Part shown: in pieces, positions 17,518-40,708 of the stretch
Numbering within the stretch: position 1 is the stretch's first letter
Layout of the letters: each line of letters begins with the position of its first letter
Source of the DNA: Limnochordia bacterium
Lineage (GTDB): Bacteria; Bacillota; Limnochordia; Darwinibacteriales; Darwinibacteriaceae
Direction: 5' to 3'
Assembly: GCA_050952265.1 (NCBI GenBank)
Contig: JBMNKP010000001.1
Span: forward strand, 431,596-495,595
DNA: 64,000 bases
The notes under the pieces: model-generated
Told to the model about the DNA's origin: nothing
Seen by the model: only the letters and a program-made list of their open reading frames with translations
Database searches by the model: none
Position numbers and translations under genes: made by a program

Positions 17518-17898
17518 ATGCAAAAGAAGTTGTTGTTGCTCGCCGGCGTCGTGCTTCTTGCTGTTCTCCTGACTGGGTGCTCGGGGCTGATGGTCAAAGT
17601 CTGGTACGAATACGATCCGGTCTATTTCTACCCCATATCAAGCAATCCGGGAAAAGTATGGAAGTACGATTCGATGCAAGCAGAGTTTGTGGTGCAATCG
17701 AGTTATAAGCACAGCTTTACAAGTGTCGTGGCTGAAGTCTACACGGCGGTCACAGGTGCGCCGATCGCCCATGAGGAGACTCTCGTAAAGCCGGGCGATT
17801 ACGTGACAAGTATTATTGTAAGAGTCCCAAATGTTGGCAACCAAGACATAGTGATCAAAATCAGGCCGGCCTTTGGAGACTCAAACGAAGAGCAGTGA
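17518..17898 (+). CDS. small lipoprotein, paralog 3 of 3
   Basis: LLTGC lipobox. C-terminal VPNVGNQDIVIKIRP motif. Starts 34 nt after paralog 2. Confidence 0.65.
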   Translation: MQKKLLLLAGVVLLAVLLTGCSGLMVKVWYEYDPVYFYPISSNPGKVWKYDSMQAEFVVQSSYKHSFTSVVAEVYTAVTGAPIAHEETLVKPGDYVTSIIVRVPNVGNQDIVIKIRPAFGDSNEEQ

Positions 17899-17903
17899 TG
17901 CAA

Positions 17904-17926
17904 GAACCCCACCGCTGGTGGGGTTC
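17904..17926. terminator. GC-rich hairpin between convergent genes (possible bidirectional terminator)
   Basis: GAACCCCACCGCTGGTGGGGTTC. Flanking U-runs are weak on both strands. Confidence 0.4.
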
Positions 17927-17938
17927 TCCTTTGAGTTC

Positions 17939-19144
17939 CTAGCTTTCTCTGTAGCGCAGCCACTTCCAGACTTCTTTGGGGGTGGCGTTTTTGCCGTACA
18001 TGAGCATGCCCACCCTGAAGATTTTGGCCGAGGCGCGCATAGTGATGAAGGCCGTGATGAGCAGCAGTGCTGCGGAAAGGAGCTGCTGCCAGAGGGGGAC
18101 GGCGGTAAACCCGCTGCGCAGCATCATGATCGCCGAACTGGTGAGGGGAAACAGGCTGGCAAAGACAGCGATCGATCCGTTGGGGTTGCTGATCACCGGC
18201 CCGAGGAAGAGGAAAGCCAGCATGGGAAGCATGATCACGATGCTCTGGGCGTTGCCGGCGCTCTGCAGGTCCTCCATAGTCGCTCCCAGTCCGACAAACA
18301 AGGCGCTGAAGAGCAGGTAGCCGCCGAGGCCAAAGGCCAGGATCACGGGGAGGTTCACCGCCCGCAGGGCTTCCAAGATGGGGAATTCCAAAAAACGGAC
18401 CGCGAAGGGCAGGCCGAGGGCCAGCCAGAAACCGAGCTGGATAAGACCCAGAAGGAAGTGCCCAACGATCTTGCCCTGCATCAGCTCCCGGGGGCTGATC
18501 GAAGACAGCACCACTTCCGCCATGCGGTCCCGCTTCTCCTGAACGGCGCTCTGCATGAGCATTGTTCCTGAGGTAAAGACCAGGAAGTAGACCAGGCCCG
18601 TGAACACGGAGGAGACCACCAGGTGCATGGTCTGCGGCTGGGCCTCTTCCTTGAGAGGTACCTGCTGCACCTGTGCCGATGCTGTGAGGAGGGCAAGTTC
18701 CTCGGGGCTTACCCCCGACCCCGCAAGGCGCAGCTGCTGCAGAAGTGCAGTCAGGGCTTGGCGCAGGGAACTCACTGCCTGGCTGTTGGAGTCGTTGTAA
18801 AAGAGCTCCAGCTGTCCGGTGGTGACGAAGCTCTCCTGAAGCAGGAAGTAACCGGCCCCTTTCTTGGACAGAACGAGCTCGCGGAGATCTGAACCAGGCT
18901 CTGCTTCCACCAGCACGACGTGGGTTGGCAGCAGCTCCTTCAGGGTGTCCGCGGCACCCAGCTCGTCCACCACGTAGTACGTTATTTCTGACGGCTGGTT
19001 CATCCGCTCCAAAAACACAGGCACCACGATGAAGAGGGCCATGATCAGAGGGGTGATGATCAGTCCGAAGATGAACTGCTTGTTGGTCAGGTTGCGCAGG
19101 ACTTCCCAACTAGCGATCTTCCAGGCGTTCCGCATGCTGCGCAC
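17939..19144 (-). CDS. ABC-2 family transporter permease (NatB-like)
   Basis: 401 aa: N-terminal TM helix, large extracytoplasmic loop, then a C-terminal cluster of TM helices typical of ABC-2 permeases. Overlaps the upstream ATPase gene. Confidence 0.75.
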   Translation of the reverse strand: MRSMRNAWKIASWEVLRNLTNKQFIFGLIITPLIMALFIVVPVFLERMNQPSEITYYVVDELGAADTLKELLPTHVVLVEAEPGSDLRELVLSKKGAGYFLLQESFVTTGQLELFYNDSNSQAVSSLRQALTALLQQLRLAGSGVSPEELALLTASAQVQQVPLKEEAQPQTMHLVVSSVFTGLVYFLVFTSGTMLMQSAVQEKRDRMAEVVLSSISPRELMQGKIVGHFLLGLIQLGFWLALGLPFAVRFLEFPILEALRAVNLPVILAFGLGGYLLFSALFVGLGATMEDLQSAGNAQSIVIMLPMLAFLFLGPVISNPNGSIAVFASLFPLTSSAIMMLRSGFTAVPLWQQLLSAALLLITAFITMRASAKIFRVGMLMYGKNATPKEVWKWLRYRES

Positions 19145-20154: not shown

Positions 20155-20733
20155 TTATTCCTTTTCAGCCTCAACCGTTATCCTTTCTTCAGCGTAGATG
20201 CTGTACAGCTGATCCCTGTCCCGAACCGTTCCCCGCACTACCATGAGGTAGGAACCTGGCTCTTCCGGTGCCCGAACCATGAGGTAACCGTCCTGCAGCA
20301 GCTGAGCGCCTCTCGCCGTGAGTTCCAATATGGCAGGGCTCGCGCCCTCCTTTTCGGGCCAGATCTCCAGGATCGGCCCTTCTTCCTCACCAGCGGCACC
20401 AGGCTCCATGGTCAACACCAGCTTGAGCTCGGCTCCTCCCTGGACAATCTGGGGCTCGGGAAGCGGTACCGGTACCGAAAACATGCGCAGGGGAACGGGT
20501 TCCTCGACGTCCGGCAGCGGGGGAGGCTGGGGCTTCCACAATGACTGGGCAAACAAGGCCAGGATCAGAACCGCGGCCGCCGCCGTACCCAGCCAGAGGG
20601 GCTGTCTGGAGCGACGGGGCTCTCTGCGCAGCTGCTCCGAAACTTTCGCCCAAAGGGCATCGGGGGAGCCCTGCCACTGGCTGTTGGTCCTCAGCGCTTC
20701 GCTGATCCGCTCATCTGGAATCATCAATGCCAC
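20155..20733 (-). CDS. putative membrane-spanning anti-sigma factor
   Basis: Immediately downstream of and overlapping the ECF sigma gene. Single TM segment LWLGTAAAAVLILALFAQSLW followed by a Pro-rich extracytoplasmic domain. Confidence 0.5.
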   Translation of the reverse strand: MALMIPDERISEALRTNSQWQGSPDALWAKVSEQLRREPRRSRQPLWLGTAAAAVLILALFAQSLWKPQPPPLPDVEEPVPLRMFSVPVPLPEPQIVQGGAELKLVLTMEPGAAGEEEGPILEIWPEKEGASPAILELTARGAQLLQDGYLMVRAPEEPGSYLMVVRGTVRDRDQLYSIYAEERITVEAEKE

Positions 20734-21274
20734 CTCCTTGGAGGGCCGCGACGCTCTGCTTCAAGCGCTGCCTGGCGGTATAGAGACGTGACTTTACGGT
20801 GGAAAGGGGGATGCGGAGCGTCTGAGCAATCTCCGCTTCTGTAAGCTCCGATACATACTTCAACAGGAGGGGAATGCGGTATTTGTCATCGAGAGTGTTG
20901 ATCGCCTGGAAGAGCTGGTCCAGGCCAGCCCTGTCCAGGGCGCTGCTCTCCGGGTCTGCCGCAGCGCCGCTGTCTTCCTCCTCCAGTTCATAGGGTAGAT
21001 GGACCCGGTCGAGCCGGCTTTTCGTGCGCTTAGCCTTGTTGATCACAATGCGCGTGAACCAAGGCTTGAACGGCCTGCCGTCCTGAAAGCCGTGGAGAGA
21101 GCGGAATGCCTGCACAAACGCCTCCTGAACCGCATCTTCAGCAGTGGCCCAGTTGCGGGTGACCAGGTAGGCCAAGCGGATGGCGCTGTCTAGATGAGTT
21201 CTGAAGATCTGCTCCAAAGCGGCCTGCTCCCCCCGCTTGGCGCGCCTGATGAGTTCCTGCTCCGCAAGTTCCAC
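20711..21274 (-). CDS. ECF-type RNA polymerase sigma-70 factor
   Basis: Region 2 (AEDAVQEAFVQAFR) and region 4 (LSELTEAEIAQTLRIPLSTVKSRLYTARQRLK). Start trimmed to GTG 21274 (MELAEQELIRRAKRG...), 6 nt after AAGGAGG. Confidence 0.8.
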   Translation of the reverse strand: MELAEQELIRRAKRGEQAALEQIFRTHLDSAIRLAYLVTRNWATAEDAVQEAFVQAFRSLHGFQDGRPFKPWFTRIVINKAKRTKSRLDRVHLPYELEEEDSGAAADPESSALDRAGLDQLFQAINTLDDKYRIPLLLKYVSELTEAEIAQTLRIPLSTVKSRLYTARQRLKQSVAALQGGGIDDSR

Positions 21275-21500
21275 TCCGATCCTCCTTTCTGCCCTCACTT
21301 GATATATCCAAGCTGGGGTGAAAAGGTTGACTGCCGAGTGCATTTTTTCTCTGGCAGTTGTACCCAACCCCTTTGAAAAAAGATCCACAAACTCTGAGAT
21401 AAAGAACCTAATTGGCAGGGTTTGTTATCTATCTGTCGAATAAGGCGATCATGTATTTATTCACCTGACTAACTGAATAAACCTAGGATGTCCTGAGGGG

Positions 21501-22118
21501 GTGGCGGCTGTTTCTAGGCATGAACCGAGACTACCCGGTCTTGTGACACCAACCTTTGAGATCGAAGACAGAGTTATCAACGCACTAATGCATGTCCTCT
21601 ATGAGAAGAGCCCGCGCGAAGAGGGACATTCACGCCGAGTGAGCCAGATCTGTTTTGCCATCGGTGAGCAGCTTGGCCTGGAACACGCAGAAAAAATCCA
21701 GCTGGCCAAAGTCGGGCTGCTGCACGACATCGGCAAGATCTCCATACCCAGCGAGATTCTCAACAAAGCGGAGCCGCTCCTGCCGCGGGAGTGGAAAGAG
21801 ATACACGAGCACCCCGTCAATGGACATCGGTTCTTGAGTGCCGTGGTTGGGATGGCAGAAATTGCCGAAGCGACCCTGGCCCACCATGAGCGCATGGATG
21901 GAACCGGCTATCCGTACGGGCGCCGTGGCGAACAGATCCCCCTCATGGCCAGGATTGTGGCGGTAGCGGACGCCTATGATGCGATGGTCAGTCCGAGACC
22001 TTATCGGTATGCCTACAGTCACTGCCAAGCCATGCAGGAACTGATGCGAGGCGCAGGAAGGCAGTTTGACGCCAAAGTCGTACAAGCTTTTTGTGGATTG
22101 GTATCTAATATAGCTTAG
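21501..22118 (+). CDS. HD-GYP domain protein (likely c-di-GMP phosphodiesterase)
   Basis: GHSRRVS, LLHDIGKISIP and HHERMDGTGYPYG motifs. Confidence 0.75.
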   Translation: MAAVSRHEPRLPGLVTPTFEIEDRVINALMHVLYEKSPREEGHSRRVSQICFAIGEQLGLEHAEKIQLAKVGLLHDIGKISIPSEILNKAEPLLPREWKEIHEHPVNGHRFLSAVVGMAEIAEATLAHHERMDGTGYPYGRRGEQIPLMARIVAVADAYDAMVSPRPYRYAYSHCQAMQELMRGAGRQFDAKVVQAFCGLVSNIA

Positions 22119-31330: not shown

Positions 31331-33967
31331 ATGGGGAGAAGAGTGGTGGGCATCCTGGCCCATGTCGATGCAGGGAAAACCACATTATCCGAGAGCATGC
31401 TCTACGTAAGCGGCCGCATCCAGCGTTTGGGCCGGGTGGACAAGGGCGATGCCTACCTCGATACCCACGATCTTGAGCGGGAGCGGGGCATCACCATCTT
31501 TGCCAAGCAGGCTGTTTTCCATTTCGGCGGCACGGAGTTCACTCTGCTGGACACCCCCGGCCATGTCGATTTTTCCCCCGAAATGGAAAGGACTCTGCAG
31601 GTTCTGGACAGCGCAATCCTCGTGATCAGCGCCGCAGACGGCGTACAGGGGCACTCCAGCACGATCTGGCGCCTGCTGGAACTGTACAGGCTCCCCGTCT
31701 TCATCTTTGTCAACAAGATGGACCAGCCCAAGGCAGATCGGGAGGCACTCCTGAGGGAGCTCTGGGAAGTGCTGGACGCCCGCTGCGTCGATCTTACCTC
31801 CGAGGACTTCCTGGAGCAGGCAGCCCTTTGCAGCGAGGAACTCCTCCAGGAGTACACGGCCACCGGCACCCTGACTCCCGAATCCATCCAGGCTGCAGTT
31901 GCCGGCCGCCGGCTCTTTCCAGTCTATTTCGGCTCGGCCCTCAAGGTAGAGGGCGTACTTGAATTCCTGGAAGGGCTTGCCGCCTATACGAAAGAGCCGT
32001 GCTATCACCGAGAGTTTGGGGCCCGGGTCTTCAAGATTTCCCGCGATGACCAGGGCGCCCGCCTCACACACCTGAAGATCACGGGCGGGAGCCTGAAGGT
32101 TAAGGATGCCGTGCAGGGGAGCGGTTGGGAAGAAAAAGTCAACCAGATCCGGGTTTATTCGGGCGGGAAGTACGAAGTGGTCCAGGAGGTGGGTCCGGGA
32201 ACGGTCTGCGCAGTAACGGGGCTCAGCCGCACCAGGCCAGGAGACGGCTTGGGGGCGGAGGGGCAGGCGCGCACTCCTGTACTGGAGCCTGTGCTGGCCT
32301 ACCGCATCATCCTCCCTGAGGGATGCGATGCCCGCAACATCCTGCCCAAACTCCGGGAGCTCGAGGAAGAAGAGCCCGCGCTGCACATCCTCTGGGATGA
32401 GCTGCTGCAGGAGATCCAAGTCCAGCTCATGGGAGAGGTGCAGACCGAGATCCTGCAGCGCCTGATCGCGGAGCGCTTTGGCCTTCTGGTACAGTTTGGC
32501 GAAGGCAGCATCCTGTACAAAGAGACCATCTCGAGCGCGGTTGAGGGTGTGGGGCACTTCGAGCCCATGGGGCACTATGCAGAAGTCCACCTGCTGCTGG
32601 AGCCCGGTGAGCGGGGCAGCGGGCTGGAGTTTGCCGTGGGCTGCAGCGAAGATGTGCTGGCCAAGAACTGGCAGCGCCTGATCCTCACCCACCTCCAGGA
32701 AAAAACCCATGTGGGCGTCCTGACTGGTTCGCCCATCACCGATATGAAGATCACCTTGGTCGGGGGACAGGCAAGCAGGGAGATCACGGAAGGGGGAGAC
32801 TTCCGGGAAGCCACCTACCGGGCCGTGCGCCAGGGGCTCATGGAAGCCCGTTCCGTCCTTCTGGAACCCTATTACTCCTTCCGCCTGGAGGTCCCGGAAA
32901 AGCAGGTCGGCCGCGCCATGAGCGACATGGAAAAGATGCAGGCAAGCTGGGAGCTTGCTCCTTCAGTTGGGGAGTCAGCCGTTTTGGTGGGCAGTGCACC
33001 TGTGGTAACCATGCGCAACTACCACCGGGAAGTAGCCGCATATACCAGAGGTTTGGGGCGCCTTTCGCTGAGCGTTGAGGGCTACCGGCCGTGCCACAAT
33101 GCTCAGGATGTGATCGCTGCCATCGGCTACGACCCGGAGCGCGATGCGGCCAACCCCTCCGGCTCGATCTTTTTCTTCAACGGCTCAAGCGTGTACGTGC
33201 CCTGGCACGAGGTCAAGCGCGTGATGCACGCACCCGCTTTCCTTCAGGAGGAGAAGCGGCAGGCAGGCTCCGGCCCCGTTATCAGGCATCCAGTGACGAG
33301 CTCCGCCGACGACTACGAGGACTGGGGTTTCTGGGACACCGCCGCGAACCGGGGAACACAGGCAGGCTTCAAGCAGAGCAGGGCCGCGGGCGGGAAGCAG
33401 GACAGGCAGGCTGCTTCCGGCCGGCTGCCCGAGCCCCGGGAACAGTACCTCCTTGTAGACGGCTACAACGTCATCCATGCCTGGCCCGAGCTGAAAGAGC
33501 TGGCCGAGGACAACATGGATATCGCGCGCATCCGGCTGCTCGATGCCCTCGCCAACTACCAGGGACTGAAGCAGAACAAGGTCATGGTGGTATTTGACGC
33601 TTACGCGGTGCCCGACCGCACCGTGGCCGAGGTTGAACAGCACCACAACATCCAAGTCGTGTACACCAAAGAAGCCCAGACGGCCGACGAGTACATCGAG
33701 AAGTTCGCCTACGATTTCAAGAAAGACTACGAAATCGTGGTTGCCACCAACGACGCCCTGCAGCAGGTGATCCTGCGGAGCGCGGGCTGTGCGCTGCTCT
33801 CCGCACGGGAGCTCAAGGAAGAATTAGAGGCGGCCCGAGAAAGGCTGGAAACGACCTACAAGAACAGGCGGAGGCTGGGCCGCGCTGCTCTGGAAGAAGG
33901 GCTCCCTGAGGAAATCAGGGAGCGGATGGAAGAGATCAGGCAGAATGCAGGGAGGAAGAAGCAGTGA
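31331..33967 (+). CDS. fusion protein: Tet(M)/EF-G-like ribosome-binding translational GTPase (about 640 aa) + low-complexity linker + Rae1/YacP-like NYN endoribonuclease domain (878 aa total)
   Basis: G1 AHVDAGKTT, G3 DTPGHVDF and G4 NKMD; overall collinear with Tet(M)/Tet(O). Residues about 720-860 (LLVDGYNVIHAWPELKEL, VMVVFDAY, VVYTKEAQTADEYIEKFA, VVATNDALQQ, SARELKEELE) match B. subtilis YacP/Rae1. Single uninterrupted frame. Confidence 0.75.
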   Translation: MGRRVVGILAHVDAGKTTLSESMLYVSGRIQRLGRVDKGDAYLDTHDLERERGITIFAKQAVFHFGGTEFTLLDTPGHVDFSPEMERTLQVLDSAILVISAADGVQGHSSTIWRLLELYRLPVFIFVNKMDQPKADREALLRELWEVLDARCVDLTSEDFLEQAALCSEELLQEYTATGTLTPESIQAAVAGRRLFPVYFGSALKVEGVLEFLEGLAAYTKEPCYHREFGARVFKISRDDQGARLTHLKITGGSLKVKDAVQGSGWEEKVNQIRVYSGGKYEVVQEVGPGTVCAVTGLSRTRPGDGLGAEGQARTPVLEPVLAYRIILPEGCDARNILPKLRELEEEEPALHILWDELLQEIQVQLMGEVQTEILQRLIAERFGLLVQFGEGSILYKETISSAVEGVGHFEPMGHYAEVHLLLEPGERGSGLEFAVGCSEDVLAKNWQRLILTHLQEKTHVGVLTGSPITDMKITLVGGQASREITEGGDFREATYRAVRQGLMEARSVLLEPYYSFRLEVPEKQVGRAMSDMEKMQASWELAPSVGESAVLVGSAPVVTMRNYHREVAAYTRGLGRLSLSVEGYRPCHNAQDVIAAIGYDPERDAANPSGSIFFFNGSSVYVPWHEVKRVMHAPAFLQEEKRQAGSGPVIRHPVTSSADDYEDWGFWDTAANRGTQAGFKQSRAAGGKQDRQAASGRLPEPREQYLLVDGYNVIHAWPELKELAEDNMDIARIRLLDALANYQGLKQNKVMVVFDAYAVPDRTVAEVEQHHNIQVVYTKEAQTADEYIEKFAYDFKKDYEIVVATNDALQQVILRSAGCALLSARELKEELEAARERLETTYKNRRRLGRAALEEGLPEEIRERMEEIRQNAGRKKQ

Positions 33968-37210: not shown

Positions 37211-37576
37211 ATGTTTTTTATCGGGATCTTTGGAGTGCAGGACAAAGAAGAAACGATCAGAACGGAGCAGGCCGTGACCTGCCCCCTCTGCGGGGCCTAT
37301 GACCGCTACGAGGTGCTGCGGGTGTACAATTACTTCCACATCTTCTTCATCCCGGTCTGGAAGTGGAATAAGCGCTACTTCCTGCGCACCCGCTGCTGCC
37401 GGAGGATCTGCGCGCTGCGGGAAGAAGTGGGTCAGCGCATCGAGCAGGGGCAGGCCGTGACCATCACTTCAGCTGATGTCAAGTGCAGCGAACCAGTTGG
37501 GAACTCCTGCCCCAGCTGCGGCGCGCAGCTGCACAGCTCCTTCAGCTACTGTCCCTACTGCGGCAGCCGCCTTTGA
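37211..37576 (+). CDS. zinc-ribbon domain protein (121 aa)
   Basis: CPLCGAY near the N-terminus and CPSCGAQ...CPYCGS at the C-terminus; predicted internal TM segment. Confidence 0.55.
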   Translation: MFFIGIFGVQDKEETIRTEQAVTCPLCGAYDRYEVLRVYNYFHIFFIPVWKWNKRYFLRTRCCRRICALREEVGQRIEQGQAVTITSADVKCSEPVGNSCPSCGAQLHSSFSYCPYCGSRL

Positions 37577-37770
37577 AAAGCCGCCGGGCATTTACAGACA
37601 CTTTACGCATGGTTGATAATAACGCAACATGCAAGCGTTATAGTGCAGGCGACTGAACCGTTCGACGTTTTTCGTAATACGCATTGCACCACTATTCACA
37701 ACCGCGTTTCGACCACGGTTACGGACTGAAGGGATGGCGCGGGTCGTTTTTTGCCCTTGGTTTGACTGGA

Positions 37771-37900
37771 GGAAGTGAATATTTGGCAAACCATGAGAAA
37801 TCATGGGACGCAAAGCTAGAGGGGCTAAGCACGTTACGTGTATGCCAGCCAGTTGCGGTTTCGAATGCTTCCTAACTGCCTGGTTGGGAAGCGTTTTTTT
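37771..37900 (+). promoter_or_regulatory. candidate c-di-GMP-I (GEMM) riboswitch with intrinsic-terminator expression platform
   Basis: UUUGGCAAACCAUGAGAAAUCAUGGGACGCAAAGC parallels the V. cholerae Vc2 aptamer core GGGCAAACCAUUCGAAAGAGUGGGACGCAAAGCC, including the GAAA tetraloop hairpin. The 3' P1 strand GCUUCC doubles as the 5' arm of terminator GCTTCC-N13-GGGAAGC plus T7 (37867-37900). The gene ATG is at 37920. Confidence 0.55.
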
Positions 37901-37919
37901 ATGCCTAGGGGGGTTGGGA

Positions 37920-39806
37920 ATGACAAACGGAGTATCGTTGTCCAATTTGGGCGCGGAATCGTCGAAAGAATTAGAAAAAATAACCGAAAATGTAGTAGAA
38001 GCCGATCAGATCGACCGGGAGGGAAGGCTTGCCGTCGTCTGCGGGCAGCTGCGCATGGAAGAGCCGCAGGGGCGAGGCGCCTGGCCGGTGATTGTACCTG
38101 GTCCTCACCTGAGCCTGCGCCAGGGGGACAAGCTGGTCACAGGGCCGACAATTGTGGAGAGCCTGGAGGGCTTTTCCATCGCGCTCCAGCACGAGCCGCC
38201 GCAGAGCAAGTTTGAGCTGATCGTTTCCCGGGACAGGATGAAGGTGACCTTGAAAACGCGCTTTCGTTTCGGGACGGTGTACAAGCTGCGGGATGAGGAG
38301 TTTCAGCAGCGGCTGGTGCTCAAAGCGGTTCCGGCTGCAGACGTGCCGCCTAAGCCGATCGATCCCGCGTTGGTCTTGGCCAAGCTGCAGGAAATGGGTG
38401 TTCAACCTGAGACAGTCGAGACTGACCTGCTCCTGCAGGCCTGCAGTGAATGCCGCGATGCCGATGTGGTGATCGCCCGGGGCGTCGCGCCCGTTCCTCC
38501 AGTGGACGGTCGTGTGGAACTGGTCTGTGACCTCAAGCCCCGGGTCCCCAGTGAGAAGGAGGGCGACCGGGTAGACATTTTGGACCGAGGCACCTATAAC
38601 GCTGTGAATGCCGGCGAAGTCTTGGCCGTACTCCATCCTTCTGAACCGGGCAAGCCCGGGAAAGATGTCTTCGGCCGCGAGGTTCCGCCCCGGCTGCCGC
38701 GCCCGGTGCAGTTCACGGCAGGGCCCGGTGTGAAGTTGATCAAGGACGGGCGGATCGCCGTCGCCGAAGTGACCGGAAGGCCCACTTTCCAGCGGGGGGT
38801 GCTGCAGGTCAACACTCAGCTCGTGATCGGCGGGAATGTGACGGTAGCTTCGGGGAACGTCGATTTCAAAGGCGATGTGTTGATCATGGGCGATGTGGAA
38901 GAATCTCTGACCGTTAGGGCTGGCGGCGGGGTTGATGTGTACGGCAGCGCTTACCATGCGACTATTATCGCCGATGGGGGAGTGACCATCGCTGGCAAGC
39001 TGATCGGAGGCTCTGTGATCGCCGGCATCAATCAGCCAGGACTTGCAAAGGCCGTCAAGCTCTTGAGCTGGCTGGACCGTGATCTGGATCAGCTTCTTTC
39101 TGCTTTTTATCAGCTCCGGGAACATCTTGCTGGGAGCGGGAACTCCTTTGGCTGGCGCGGCGACGGCTACCTGATCAAAGTCCTGCTGGAGACCCGCCTG
39201 CCCCAGATCCCGAAACACTTTGGTCAGCTGCACGAGCTGCTGAGCGGCGACCTGGATCCCGGTGCAGAAGAGCTTGCCAAGTCGTCCGCGGCTTTGAAGT
39301 ATATCGCTGAAAGGTTTCTAGGTGCAGCCCCTCTGGAGATCGCCTGCTCTGAAGAGGTCGCCCGTTACCGGCTGCAGCTGCGCACCCTTGCCAGTCAACT
39401 GGAGGAGCACGTTGACGCGGCAGCAGATGTCGTGGTGCACTACTGTCAGAACGCTAAGATCGAGGCTACCGGTAATGTTACGGTGGCAGGTCTGCTGATC
39501 TACGACTGCGAGATCACTGCCGGGAAGACTTTGGAATTGGGCGGGCAGTGCCGCAGCGGCTCCTATACCGGTTCCTCCATTTATGCCCAGGTGGTGGGTT
39601 CCACTGGCATGGGAGCGCCGTCTCTAACGGTGTGCGACGGAGGGGTGATCGCGGCTCGCCGGTTCTGCTCCGGAGTGCGGCTGCGGATCGGCTCTGTGCA
39701 GGGGACCATCGGTACAGATTGTGCCAACAGGCTGTTTTACGCGAGCGATGGCGAACTGCACAGCAGGCACTACCAGTCCCGGCGAGAGGCAGTGCCTCCA
39801 GCATGA
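37920..39806 (+). CDS. DUF342 (FapA-like) beta-helical protein
   Basis: Repeated GNVTVASGNVDFKGDVLIMGDV...AGGGVDVYGS segments. Start set at ATG 37920 after GGGGGG; the ORF-track N-terminal extension (from 37803) would run through the riboswitch terminator and is rejected. Confidence 0.75.
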   Translation: MTNGVSLSNLGAESSKELEKITENVVEADQIDREGRLAVVCGQLRMEEPQGRGAWPVIVPGPHLSLRQGDKLVTGPTIVESLEGFSIALQHEPPQSKFELIVSRDRMKVTLKTRFRFGTVYKLRDEEFQQRLVLKAVPAADVPPKPIDPALVLAKLQEMGVQPETVETDLLLQACSECRDADVVIARGVAPVPPVDGRVELVCDLKPRVPSEKEGDRVDILDRGTYNAVNAGEVLAVLHPSEPGKPGKDVFGREVPPRLPRPVQFTAGPGVKLIKDGRIAVAEVTGRPTFQRGVLQVNTQLVIGGNVTVASGNVDFKGDVLIMGDVEESLTVRAGGGVDVYGSAYHATIIADGGVTIAGKLIGGSVIAGINQPGLAKAVKLLSWLDRDLDQLLSAFYQLREHLAGSGNSFGWRGDGYLIKVLLETRLPQIPKHFGQLHELLSGDLDPGAEELAKSSAALKYIAERFLGAAPLEIACSEEVARYRLQLRTLASQLEEHVDAAADVVVHYCQNAKIEATGNVTVAGLLIYDCEITAGKTLELGGQCRSGSYTGSSIYAQVVGSTGMGAPSLTVCDGGVIAARRFCSGVRLRIGSVQGTIGTDCANRLFYASDGELHSRHYQSRREAVPPA

Positions 39807-39901: not shown

Positions 39902-40708
39902 ATGAGCAACCACCTGGATCAGTTGGACGAACTGGACCTGCAGGCCGCCAGAGAGCGCATCCGGGAGCTTGAGGAACAGCTCAACTGGGAGAGGCGCCTG
40001 CTGCGGGCGGTCAAAGATAATCTCAAGATCGCCGTCTACGCCAAAGACCTTGAAGGCAGGAAGCTTCTTACCAACCCTGTGGATCTAGACAACCAGGGGA
40101 TCAGAGACGAATCCCAGGTGTTGGGCAAAACCGACTTCGATCTCTTTCCAAGGCACATCGCCGAGCAGTTTTGGCGCGATGACTGTGCCGTGCTGCAGCA
40201 GGGCAAGTCCATTATCGACCGGGAAGAGCTCCTGATTGAAAAGGCAACCGGCCGGCAGAGGTGGCTGCGCACCTCCAAACTGCCCATCCGTGACGACAGC
40301 GGGCAGGTTATCGGCCTGGTGGGCTTCGGCCAGGACATCACTGTGGAAAAACAGCTGGAACAGGAAAACGCGGAGGCCGCTGCCAAGATCAGGGAGCAGG
40401 AAGACGCGGTGGAAGCCATGATCTCCGAACTGGCCAAGATCCCTGATAACATCGGCAAACTGGTCAACTCCATCACCTACATAGCCAAGCAGACCAAGAT
40501 GGTATCGATCAACGCCACCATCGAAGCTGCCCGGTTGGGGGACCTCGGCCGCGGCTTCGAAGTTGTGGCAGAAGAGGTGGGTCAGCTTTCCGATCGTTCC
40601 AACCAGGCAGCTGCCCAGGTGCGGGCGGCCATCGCCGAAGTAGAGACGCTGGTGTCTCGAATTCTAGAGGTCTGGAAGACCCGCAGTCAGGCGGACGAGC
40701 GCCGCTGA
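39902..40708 (+). CDS. PAS-domain protein with a truncated methyl-accepting-chemotaxis signalling segment
   Basis: PAS core DITVEKQLE; then MVSINATIEAARLGDLGRGFEVVAEEVGQLSDRSNQAA resembles the MCP signalling domain but is only about 100 aa. No TM segments. Confidence 0.65.
   Translation: MSNHLDQLDELDLQAARERIRELEEQLNWERRLLRAVKDNLKIAVYAKDLEGRKLLTNPVDLDNQGIRDESQVLGKTDFDLFPRHIAEQFWRDDCAVLQQGKSIIDREELLIEKATGRQRWLRTSKLPIRDDSGQVIGLVGFGQDITVEKQLEQENAEAAAKIREQEDAVEAMISELAKIPDNIGKLVNSITYIAKQTKMVSINATIEAARLGDLGRGFEVVAEEVGQLSDRSNQAAAQVRAAIAEVETLVSRILEVWKTRSQADERR

Follow-up and report, generated by a model that had tools for sequence, protein, structure and literature searches.

The 64,000-nucleotide (nt) stretch of Limnochordia bacterium contig JBMNKP010000001.1 analyzed here (hereafter, the window) contains a predicted riboswitch for c-di-GMP (cyclic diguanosine monophosphate) in the leader of a FapA-family (DUF342) gene, fapA, whose expression it probably turns off as c-di-GMP rises. 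A gene for a zinc-ribbon protein (37211–37576; Pfam and open reading frame (ORF) annotation) lies upstream of the leader. fapA (37920–39806, plus strand) encodes a 628-residue protein with Pfam matches to FapA_N (9.4e-32) and FapA (8.5e-22); its ATG (37920–37922), which is the start used by public gene calls, is preceded by the ribosome-binding site (RBS) AGGGGGG (37907–37913), read from the sequence. After a 95-nt gap, the same strand carries a gene (39902–40708) for a soluble 268-residue protein that combines a PAS domain (PAS_4, 1.8e-17) with the signaling domain of methyl-accepting chemotaxis proteins (MCP; MCPsignal, 4.4e-21). Judging from strand and gap, this PAS-MCP gene is probably the second gene of the unit, co-transcribed with fapA. 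An initial annotation, made from the letters of this DNA, had named a DUF342/FapA gene as the regulated target and had described the intergenic region before it as less GC-rich than the flanking coding DNA; the Pfam matches bear out the former, and GC fractions of 0.47–0.54 in the intergenic region versus 0.58–0.70 in the flanks bear out the latter. An identical copy of the FapA protein occurs on long contigs from anaerobic-digester metagenomes, and samples ERZ941585 and ERZ2648087 come from digesters in which the organism is present.

A scan of both strands of the window against all 4227 Rfam families (cmscan, gathering thresholds) returned a single match, the c-di-GMP-I family RF01051 (GEMM-I, tetraloop/receptor type), at 37775–37860 of the plus strand. 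The match spans the model from end to end (1–87) at 71.9 bits (E = 3.8e-12), about twice the gathering score of 35. The same scan gave no match at threshold to c-di-GMP-II (RF01786) anywhere in the window. The initial annotation had recognized the GEMM, or c-di-GMP-I, class from a conserved block, which we locate at 37782–37830, and had made the assignment depend on the RF01051 and RF01786 models and on the tetraloop-receptor features; RF01051 passes, and both tetraloop and receptor are present on the model alignment. Together with the orthologs and the covariation in the P2 helix described below, the match leaves us nearly certain that the element is a c-di-GMP-I aptamer.

FapA orthologs were gathered from genome and metagenome collections with pattern scans, and also through a protein search and look-ups of genomic context. 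In 12 lineages including the window (FapA 38–100% identical), an RF01051 element followed by a terminator lies directly 5′ of fapA on the same strand. The 11 other lineages (L005/L014, L006/L015/L016, L013, L023, L024, L025, L026, L027, L028, L029, and L033) have FapA proteins 38–66% identical to that of the window and RF01051 matches of 63–77 bits, and after each match comes a hairpin with a U run. A more distant homolog (L032, 27% identical) carries the sister variant RF03167 (c-di-GMP-I-GGC; 71.4 bits) at 518–603 of the plus strand, 238 nt upstream of the gene. No GEMM match was found upstream of FapA homologs ~23–38% identical (L007–L012 and L018–L022, from Lachnospiraceae, Arsukibacterium, and several unclassified metagenome contigs), nor in L030 and L031, of which L030 is uninformative, as its contig ends inside the upstream gene. 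In the searchable literature, no paper was found that links c-di-GMP riboswitches with FapA/DUF342, the one study returned being unrelated work on HubP and PdeB of Shewanella; the association between riboswitch and FapA gene is conserved and apparently undescribed. In one related lineage (L015, 5629–5763; L017, 1771–1904; both minus strand), a riboswitch for cyclic di-AMP (RF00379, 78–79 bits) lies on the opposite strand, ~1.3 kb 3′ of fapA; it has no counterpart in the window.

The aptamer comprises two hairpins, and the GACGCAAAGC junction is visible in the RF01051 model alignment of the window. P2 (P1b in some nomenclatures; 37786–37811), the GC-AAA-stem hairpin typical of the family, is capped by a GAAA tetraloop (37797–37800) in the cmscan structure line. 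P3 (37814–37854) carries the tetraloop receptor, whose halves CUAAG (37825–37829) and UAUG (37841–37844) match the model consensus CUAAg and uAuG in the cmscan alignment; docking of the tetraloop is itself a prediction. Across 11 lineages the aptamer core is almost invariant, and the P2 stem stays paired, with compensatory changes at four pairs (RNAalifold consensus). The receptor is kept in most lineages, not all, being UAAG in L029, CUAAA in L026, and CUACU in L025. The crystal structure of the Vibrio cholerae aptamer Vc2 identifies G20, A47, and C92 as the nucleotides contacting c-di-GMP (PMC5888326; PMC11705072), and a further paper, which also treats the role of G20, names position 20 as the selectivity determinant (PMC9262584). 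The equivalents in the window are G37785 (model position 11), which would contact one guanine of the ligand; A37812, directly after the P2 hairpin; and C37856 (model position 83), the expected Watson–Crick partner of the second guanine. None of the three varies among the orthologs.

The end of the aptamer and the fapA ATG are 59 nt apart, and the intervening platform is occupied by an intrinsic terminator (37863–37900, plus strand), anticipated as a strong one by the initial annotation. Its stem (37863–37896; core 37865–37876 with 37883–37894) comprises 15 pairs in the consensus scan, the hairpin alone folds at −19.6 kcal/mol, and the run of seven T (37894–37900) ends 19 nt before the ATG. Over the nine alignable lineages, 92.6% of the alignment cells in the stem are paired and both sides change at 5 of 12 pairs, a degree of covariation reached by 0 of 500 shuffles. 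Conservation across lineages, together with covariation in both P2 and the terminator, indicates that riboswitch and terminator are functional and selected and no chance match.

A second pairing links the aptamer to the terminator. The upstream strand of this putative antiterminator (37845–37860) is made of CCAGCCAG (37845–37852), which is the 3′ strand of P3, and GCGGUU (37855–37860), which holds the C92 equivalent. The downstream strand (37874–37887) is made of AACUGC (37874–37879) and CUGGUUGG (37880–37887) and corresponds to the top of the terminator 5′ arm, the loop, and the top of the 3′ arm. Specifically, CCAGCCAG pairs with CUGGUUGG and GCGGUU with AACUGC; C37879 and C37880, both confined to the loop in the terminator, are partnered here by G37855 and G37852. 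In the segment 37838–37894, which holds all of the terminator stem but its two outermost pairs, the minimum free energy (MFE) structure is nevertheless the antiterminator hairpin, at −22.7 kcal/mol. Over nine lineages, 91% of the cells in its 14 pairs are paired, versus 15–48% when the partner strand is slid by 1–3 columns; the structure was derived from the same sequences, which favors it over these slid controls. Both sides change at two pairs, as in GCGG:CUGC of the window versus GCAC:GUGC of L024. L033 keeps the outer helix, and its inner helix is swapped for CUGAA:UUCAG in another register. Duplexes between the aptamer 3′ strand and the platform beat those with shuffled platforms in most of 11 lineages (Fisher combined p = 1.8e-4, with lineages that are non-independent). 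The antiterminator also accounts for the conserved sequence of the terminator loop (UGCCUG) across lineages at 50–66% protein identity, which is otherwise unexplained. The distant L032 element has a textbook arrangement, in which the terminator 5′ arm (UGGCAGC) pairs with the aptamer 3′ strand (GCUGCCA). An additional pairing between aptamer AAAGC and terminator GCUUU was dropped, as it spans only 4–5 bp and forms a pseudoknot with the other pairing.

Since full-length MFE structures with and without the enforced aptamer do not discriminate between the two states, transcripts were folded stepwise. In the ligand-free folds of all 11 lineages, the antiterminator (7–12 bp) becomes the MFE just when transcription has passed the terminator loop and upper 3′ arm, at a point where the terminator stem cannot yet close. 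In the window, the antiterminator holds the MFE for 3′ ends 37882–37891 or 37894, depending on the 5′ flank included. Folds constrained to contain the aptamer keep the terminator in the full-length MFE of every lineage tested, so that the ligand-bound aptamer and the terminator are compatible; the aptamer and antiterminator are mutually exclusive, because the latter uses C37856. The conserved pairing between aptamer 3′ strand and terminator apex thus predicts read-through without ligand and termination with it. Without c-di-GMP, CCAGCCAG and GCGGUU would pair with AACUGC and CUGGUUGG into the antiterminator hairpin (37845–37887), the terminator stem could not close, and RNA polymerase would read into fapA. 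Binding of c-di-GMP would lock P3 and the pocket against invasion by the antiterminator, whereupon the terminator would form, transcription would end at the T run, and FapA expression would fall. The computed structures follow the OFF-switch logic [PA][TH] with ligand and P[AT]H without it. We assign a probability of about 0.6 to the c-di-GMP-I riboswitch of the fapA leader acting through the terminator at 37863–37900 in the OFF direction. It probably also controls the PAS-MCP gene behind fapA, if the operon extends as its layout suggests.

Several observations weigh against an OFF switch. The folding uses nearest-neighbor thermodynamics, with tertiary contacts, ligand energy, and kinetics outside the model. 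Most antiterminator pairs are invariant, one strand being held constant by the aptamer; the covariation statistics are accordingly weak, with an equal or higher percentage paired in 24 of 500 shuffles. In most lineages the full-length MFE structure includes the terminator whether or not the aptamer is enforced, so the switching decision must be kinetic, beyond the computation here. A G-rich 5′ element in the window lineage and in those nearest to it can pair with the terminator 5′ arm, and the overlap of a P1 helix with that arm and the feedback logic of the operon, both taken up next, also speak for the opposite direction.

That direction was proposed by the initial annotation: c-di-GMP would stabilize a P1 helix (37770–37777 with 37866–37873), sequester the lower terminator 5′ arm, and induce fapA. 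The strands are indeed complementary. GGAAGUG (37771–37777) and UGCUUCC (37866–37872) form 7 bp including two G-U pairs, and A37770-U37873 extends the helix to 8 bp (AGGAAGUG with UGCUUCCU; −9.0 kcal/mol), which overlaps the terminator 5′ arm of the window in the classic ON layout. Folding of alternative structures, also suggested by the initial annotation, shows P1 as part of the MFE when the aptamer is enforced and the transcript ends at 37873–37885, but in stepwise folding the terminator displaces it thermodynamically once the 3′ arm emerges, and it is the other alternative pairing that is conserved. Against dinucleotide shuffles of the 5′ flank, P1 is marginal in the window (p = 0.048) and does no better than chance in the 10 others. 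A systematic search for helices between the 5′ and 3′ flanks found a respectable one only in the window, and combining all 11 lineages, with the window among them, by Fisher's method gives p = 0.31; the ON mechanism therefore finds no support among the orthologs. The terminator arm lacks a 5′ partner in L023, L024, and L026–L028 and finds only a weak 5-bp match in L029 (AAGCA:UGCUU, −3.4 kcal/mol). The register of Vc2, with a helix directly 3′ of C92 and ~5 nt before G20, is unoccupied in the window, and the candidates in L005, L013, and L023 are weak and lie in other registers. The sole good candidate in the window is distal, with 7 unpaired nt between it and the pocket on the 5′ side and 9 on the 3′ side, which makes its coupling to the ligand doubtful, as P1a of Vc2 stacks directly under C92. 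On the other hand, the 5′ G-rich element GGYUGGGG of L005, L013, and L015, the closest lineages, resembles the terminator 3′ arm, with a Y that matches the terminator change in L015. In L025–L028 the terminator begins within 1–5 nt of the C92 equivalent, and a P1 placed as in Vc2 would necessarily overlap it. An ON switch in an operon with the HD-GYP phosphodiesterase of sister lineages would also yield a tidy homeostatic negative feedback. Such a switch nevertheless leaves unexplained both the conserved complementarity between aptamer 3′ strand and terminator apex, which would cause read-through in the ligand-free state as well, and the sequence conservation of the terminator loop and upper stem at 50–66% protein identity. 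We consider the ON mechanism unlikely, and the direction given by the initial annotation is probably to be reversed.

Control may also take a form other than a simple terminator switch, with a functional aptamer attached to a mostly constitutive attenuator and the ligand acting on translation or RNA stability, or with dual control of transcription and translation. The retention of the terminator in both states of the full-length folds would suit such a scheme, and there are precedents in Vc2, described as a translational switch, and in Bc1 of Bacillus thuringiensis, a GEMM-I element before a chemoreceptor gene with non-canonical dual regulation (PMC11218506). However, the RBS (37907–37913) lies outside and 3′ of the terminator hairpin, and no obvious partner for it was noticed, although no search for RBS-sequestering structures was made. 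The terminator is conserved, covaries, and overlaps a conserved alternative pairing in every lineage, as a transcriptional switch needs, and we regard control of this other kind as quite improbable. The identity of the ligand is a separate matter. GEMM-I and GEMM-Ib are inseparable by overall fold, and switches for 3′3′-cyclic GMP-AMP (cGAMP) initially went under the c-di-GMP label (PMC9262584). The window has a U-rich junction (AUAUUU) immediately 5′ of its G20 equivalent, whereas the RF01051 consensus is A-rich, and the distant FapA homolog carries the GGC variant RF03167, both of which leave room for 3′3′-cGAMP, as in GEMM-Ib, or another ligand. The G20 equivalent is nevertheless G in 12 of 12 RF01051 lineages, the window among them at model position 11, with intact equivalents of C92 and A47. 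Members selective for cGAMP reportedly carry A at position 20. Enzymes of c-di-GMP metabolism are also encoded in the window and its relatives, with an HD-GYP protein in the window and a GGDEF-EAL protein beside the L033 locus. The invariant G and the intact pocket argue for c-di-GMP rather than 3′3′-cGAMP as the ligand the aptamer is predicted to bind, and sensing of a different molecule appears very improbable. With respect to the same junction, the three nucleotides 5′ of the G20 equivalent (37782–37784 in the window) are UUU or YUU in 11 of 12 lineages and GUG in L025, where the RF01051 consensus reads AAa.

The OFF switch proposed here most resembles Cd1, the GEMM-I element before the flgB flagellar operon of Clostridioides difficile, which is a transcriptional OFF switch with no detectable P1 and an antiterminator that uses the aptamer-stabilizing strand, abolishing ligand binding (PMC9262584). 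Compared by published description, both place a GEMM-I aptamer in a Bacillota 5′ leader ahead of an intrinsic terminator, and both combine the lack of P1 (apparent here), the OFF direction (predicted here), an antiterminator sharing an aptamer strand, and genes tied to flagella or motility. Because Cd1 is an accepted member of the family, P1 is not strictly defining. The two differ in that the target here is a FapA/DUF342 gene and that of Cd1 a flagellar structural operon; the terminator here begins 1–45 nt past the pocket, whereas folding of the Cd1 antiterminator begins at ~nt 134; the antiterminator here engulfs the terminator apex, that is, the upper arms and loop; and Cd1 has been studied experimentally, whereas the window switch is a computational prediction. 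Vc2, the crystal-structure reference, belongs to the same family model and has the same pocket nucleotides and a GNRA tetraloop-receptor in the neighboring helix. Its ligand-dependent P1a helix begins directly 3′ of C92 (PMC11705072). Vc2 needs P1a in that position, and the window is without a helix in this register; Vc2 is moreover described as a translational OFF switch, whereas the window element has a terminator. The Geobacter GEMM-Ib elements pilM and Gs1761, which respond to cGAMP as ON switches, share the fold and the terminator platform, and their P1 overlaps the terminator in the layout that the initial annotation envisaged, an overlap that is unconserved in the window family. These two carry A at the position-20 equivalent and sense cGAMP; the window and its orthologs have G in every lineage. 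Bc1, before mcpE in B. thuringiensis, is a Bacillota GEMM-I element with terminators and a link to an MCP gene, as with the PAS-MCP gene after fapA, but its platform is long, with two terminators, and its effects on transcription and translation are incoherent (PMC11218506), in contrast to the single compact terminator of the window.

Upstream of the aptamer, a candidate promoter region (37591–37644, plus strand) was delineated by consensus scan and ortholog alignment. The scan points to a sigma-70-like promoter, TTTACA-18-GATAAT, at 37591–37620 (10 of 12 consensus matches), and a TATAGT box at 37639–37644 aligns opposite the TATAAT boxes of L005 and L006. TATAAT or TGTATAAT boxes also occur ~25–85 nt 5′ of the aptamer in L013, L015, L024, and L029. 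A promoter in this position remains a prediction, with a predicted transcription start at about 37627–37651, and a further candidate within 37760–37790 (TTGACT and nearby AT-rich hexamers) was rejected on inspection for its wrong spacing. The leader (37645–37760, plus strand) places ~90 nt more between −10 box and aptamer than is found in L005 and L015. A hairpin with six U at ~37711–37752 was considered as an extra attenuator and dropped, because shuffles of the leader (37645–37770) are more structured than the leader itself (z = +2.0). In ligand-free folds, 37753–37763 (GCCCUUGGUUU) pairs with the 5′ strand of aptamer P3 (37812–37825).

The window encodes a 205-residue protein (21501–22118, plus strand) with a stand-alone HD_5 domain (5e-41) and HDIGK and GTGYP motifs, which identify it as the HD-GYP protein that the initial annotation had placed there. 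Its gene divergently adjoins that of a sigma factor of the ECF type (20711–21388, minus strand). In the more distant lineages L023, L024, L025, and L029, fapA is followed by genes for STAS, HATPase_c (anti-sigma-type kinase), HD_5 (HD-GYP-type), and SpoIIE (PP2C) proteins, a partner-switching module together with a likely c-di-GMP phosphodiesterase. L028 has STAS and SpoIIE only, and L030 and L031 have STAS and kinase only within the contig; the window lineage has the PAS-MCP gene instead of the partner-switching set. Chemoreceptor, GGDEF-EAL, and YjfB_motility genes neighbor fapA in several loci, GGDEF-EAL being the neighbor at L033. By analogy, repression of a flagellar-assembly-type gene near chemoreceptor genes at high c-di-GMP would fit the precedent of Cd1 and flgB, and co-transcription of the HD-GYP gene behind an OFF switch would create a positive feedback. 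This leads to a tentative proposal, which we hold to be possible but rather doubtful, of a dedicated P1-less subfamily of c-di-GMP-I OFF switches, with an antiterminator that swallows the terminator apex, co-evolved with one FapA/DUF342 clade of uncultured high-GC Bacillota. In most lineages the controlled unit would include the partner-switching set and the HD-GYP enzyme, so that low c-di-GMP would promote its own degradation in a positive-feedback, potentially bistable circuit over a module linked to motility and chemotaxis.

Two other features of the window deserve mention. An 878-residue ORF (31331–33967, plus strand) encodes an EF-G-like translational GTPase (GTP_EFTU and EF-G domains 2, III, IV, and C; residues 4–591) with a C-terminal YacP/Rae1-like NYN nuclease domain (residues 707–870, 3.5e-50), and to find a GTPase that binds the ribosome joined to a ribosome-associated RNase domain seems unusual. 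A 436-residue ORF (17799–19109, minus strand) has a third-position GC of 0.39, versus 0.55–0.82 in all other long ORFs of the window, and is either a spurious frame or foreign DNA.

The c-di-GMP-I class is well studied, and the element itself is not new, being within reach of routine Rfam or PGAP annotation. Of modest use is the tight and evolutionarily old link between this riboswitch and one FapA/DUF342 clade, which extends over 12 RF01051 lineages with FapA identities as low as 38%. The comparison also offers a cautionary case, in which the P1/terminator overlap of one sequence suggests an ON switch and the orthologs point to a Cd1-like OFF switch. Because mutations confined to the terminator loop could cleanly separate ON from OFF, the compact platform would be a convenient test case for P1-less GEMM-I switching. 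The link ties the poorly understood FapA/DUF342 family of Bacillota to c-di-GMP signaling, chemoreceptors, partner-switching modules, and HD-GYP enzymes, and a P1-less, FapA-linked OFF subfamily, if real, would provide the first regulatory handle on the role of DUF342 proteins in Firmicutes.

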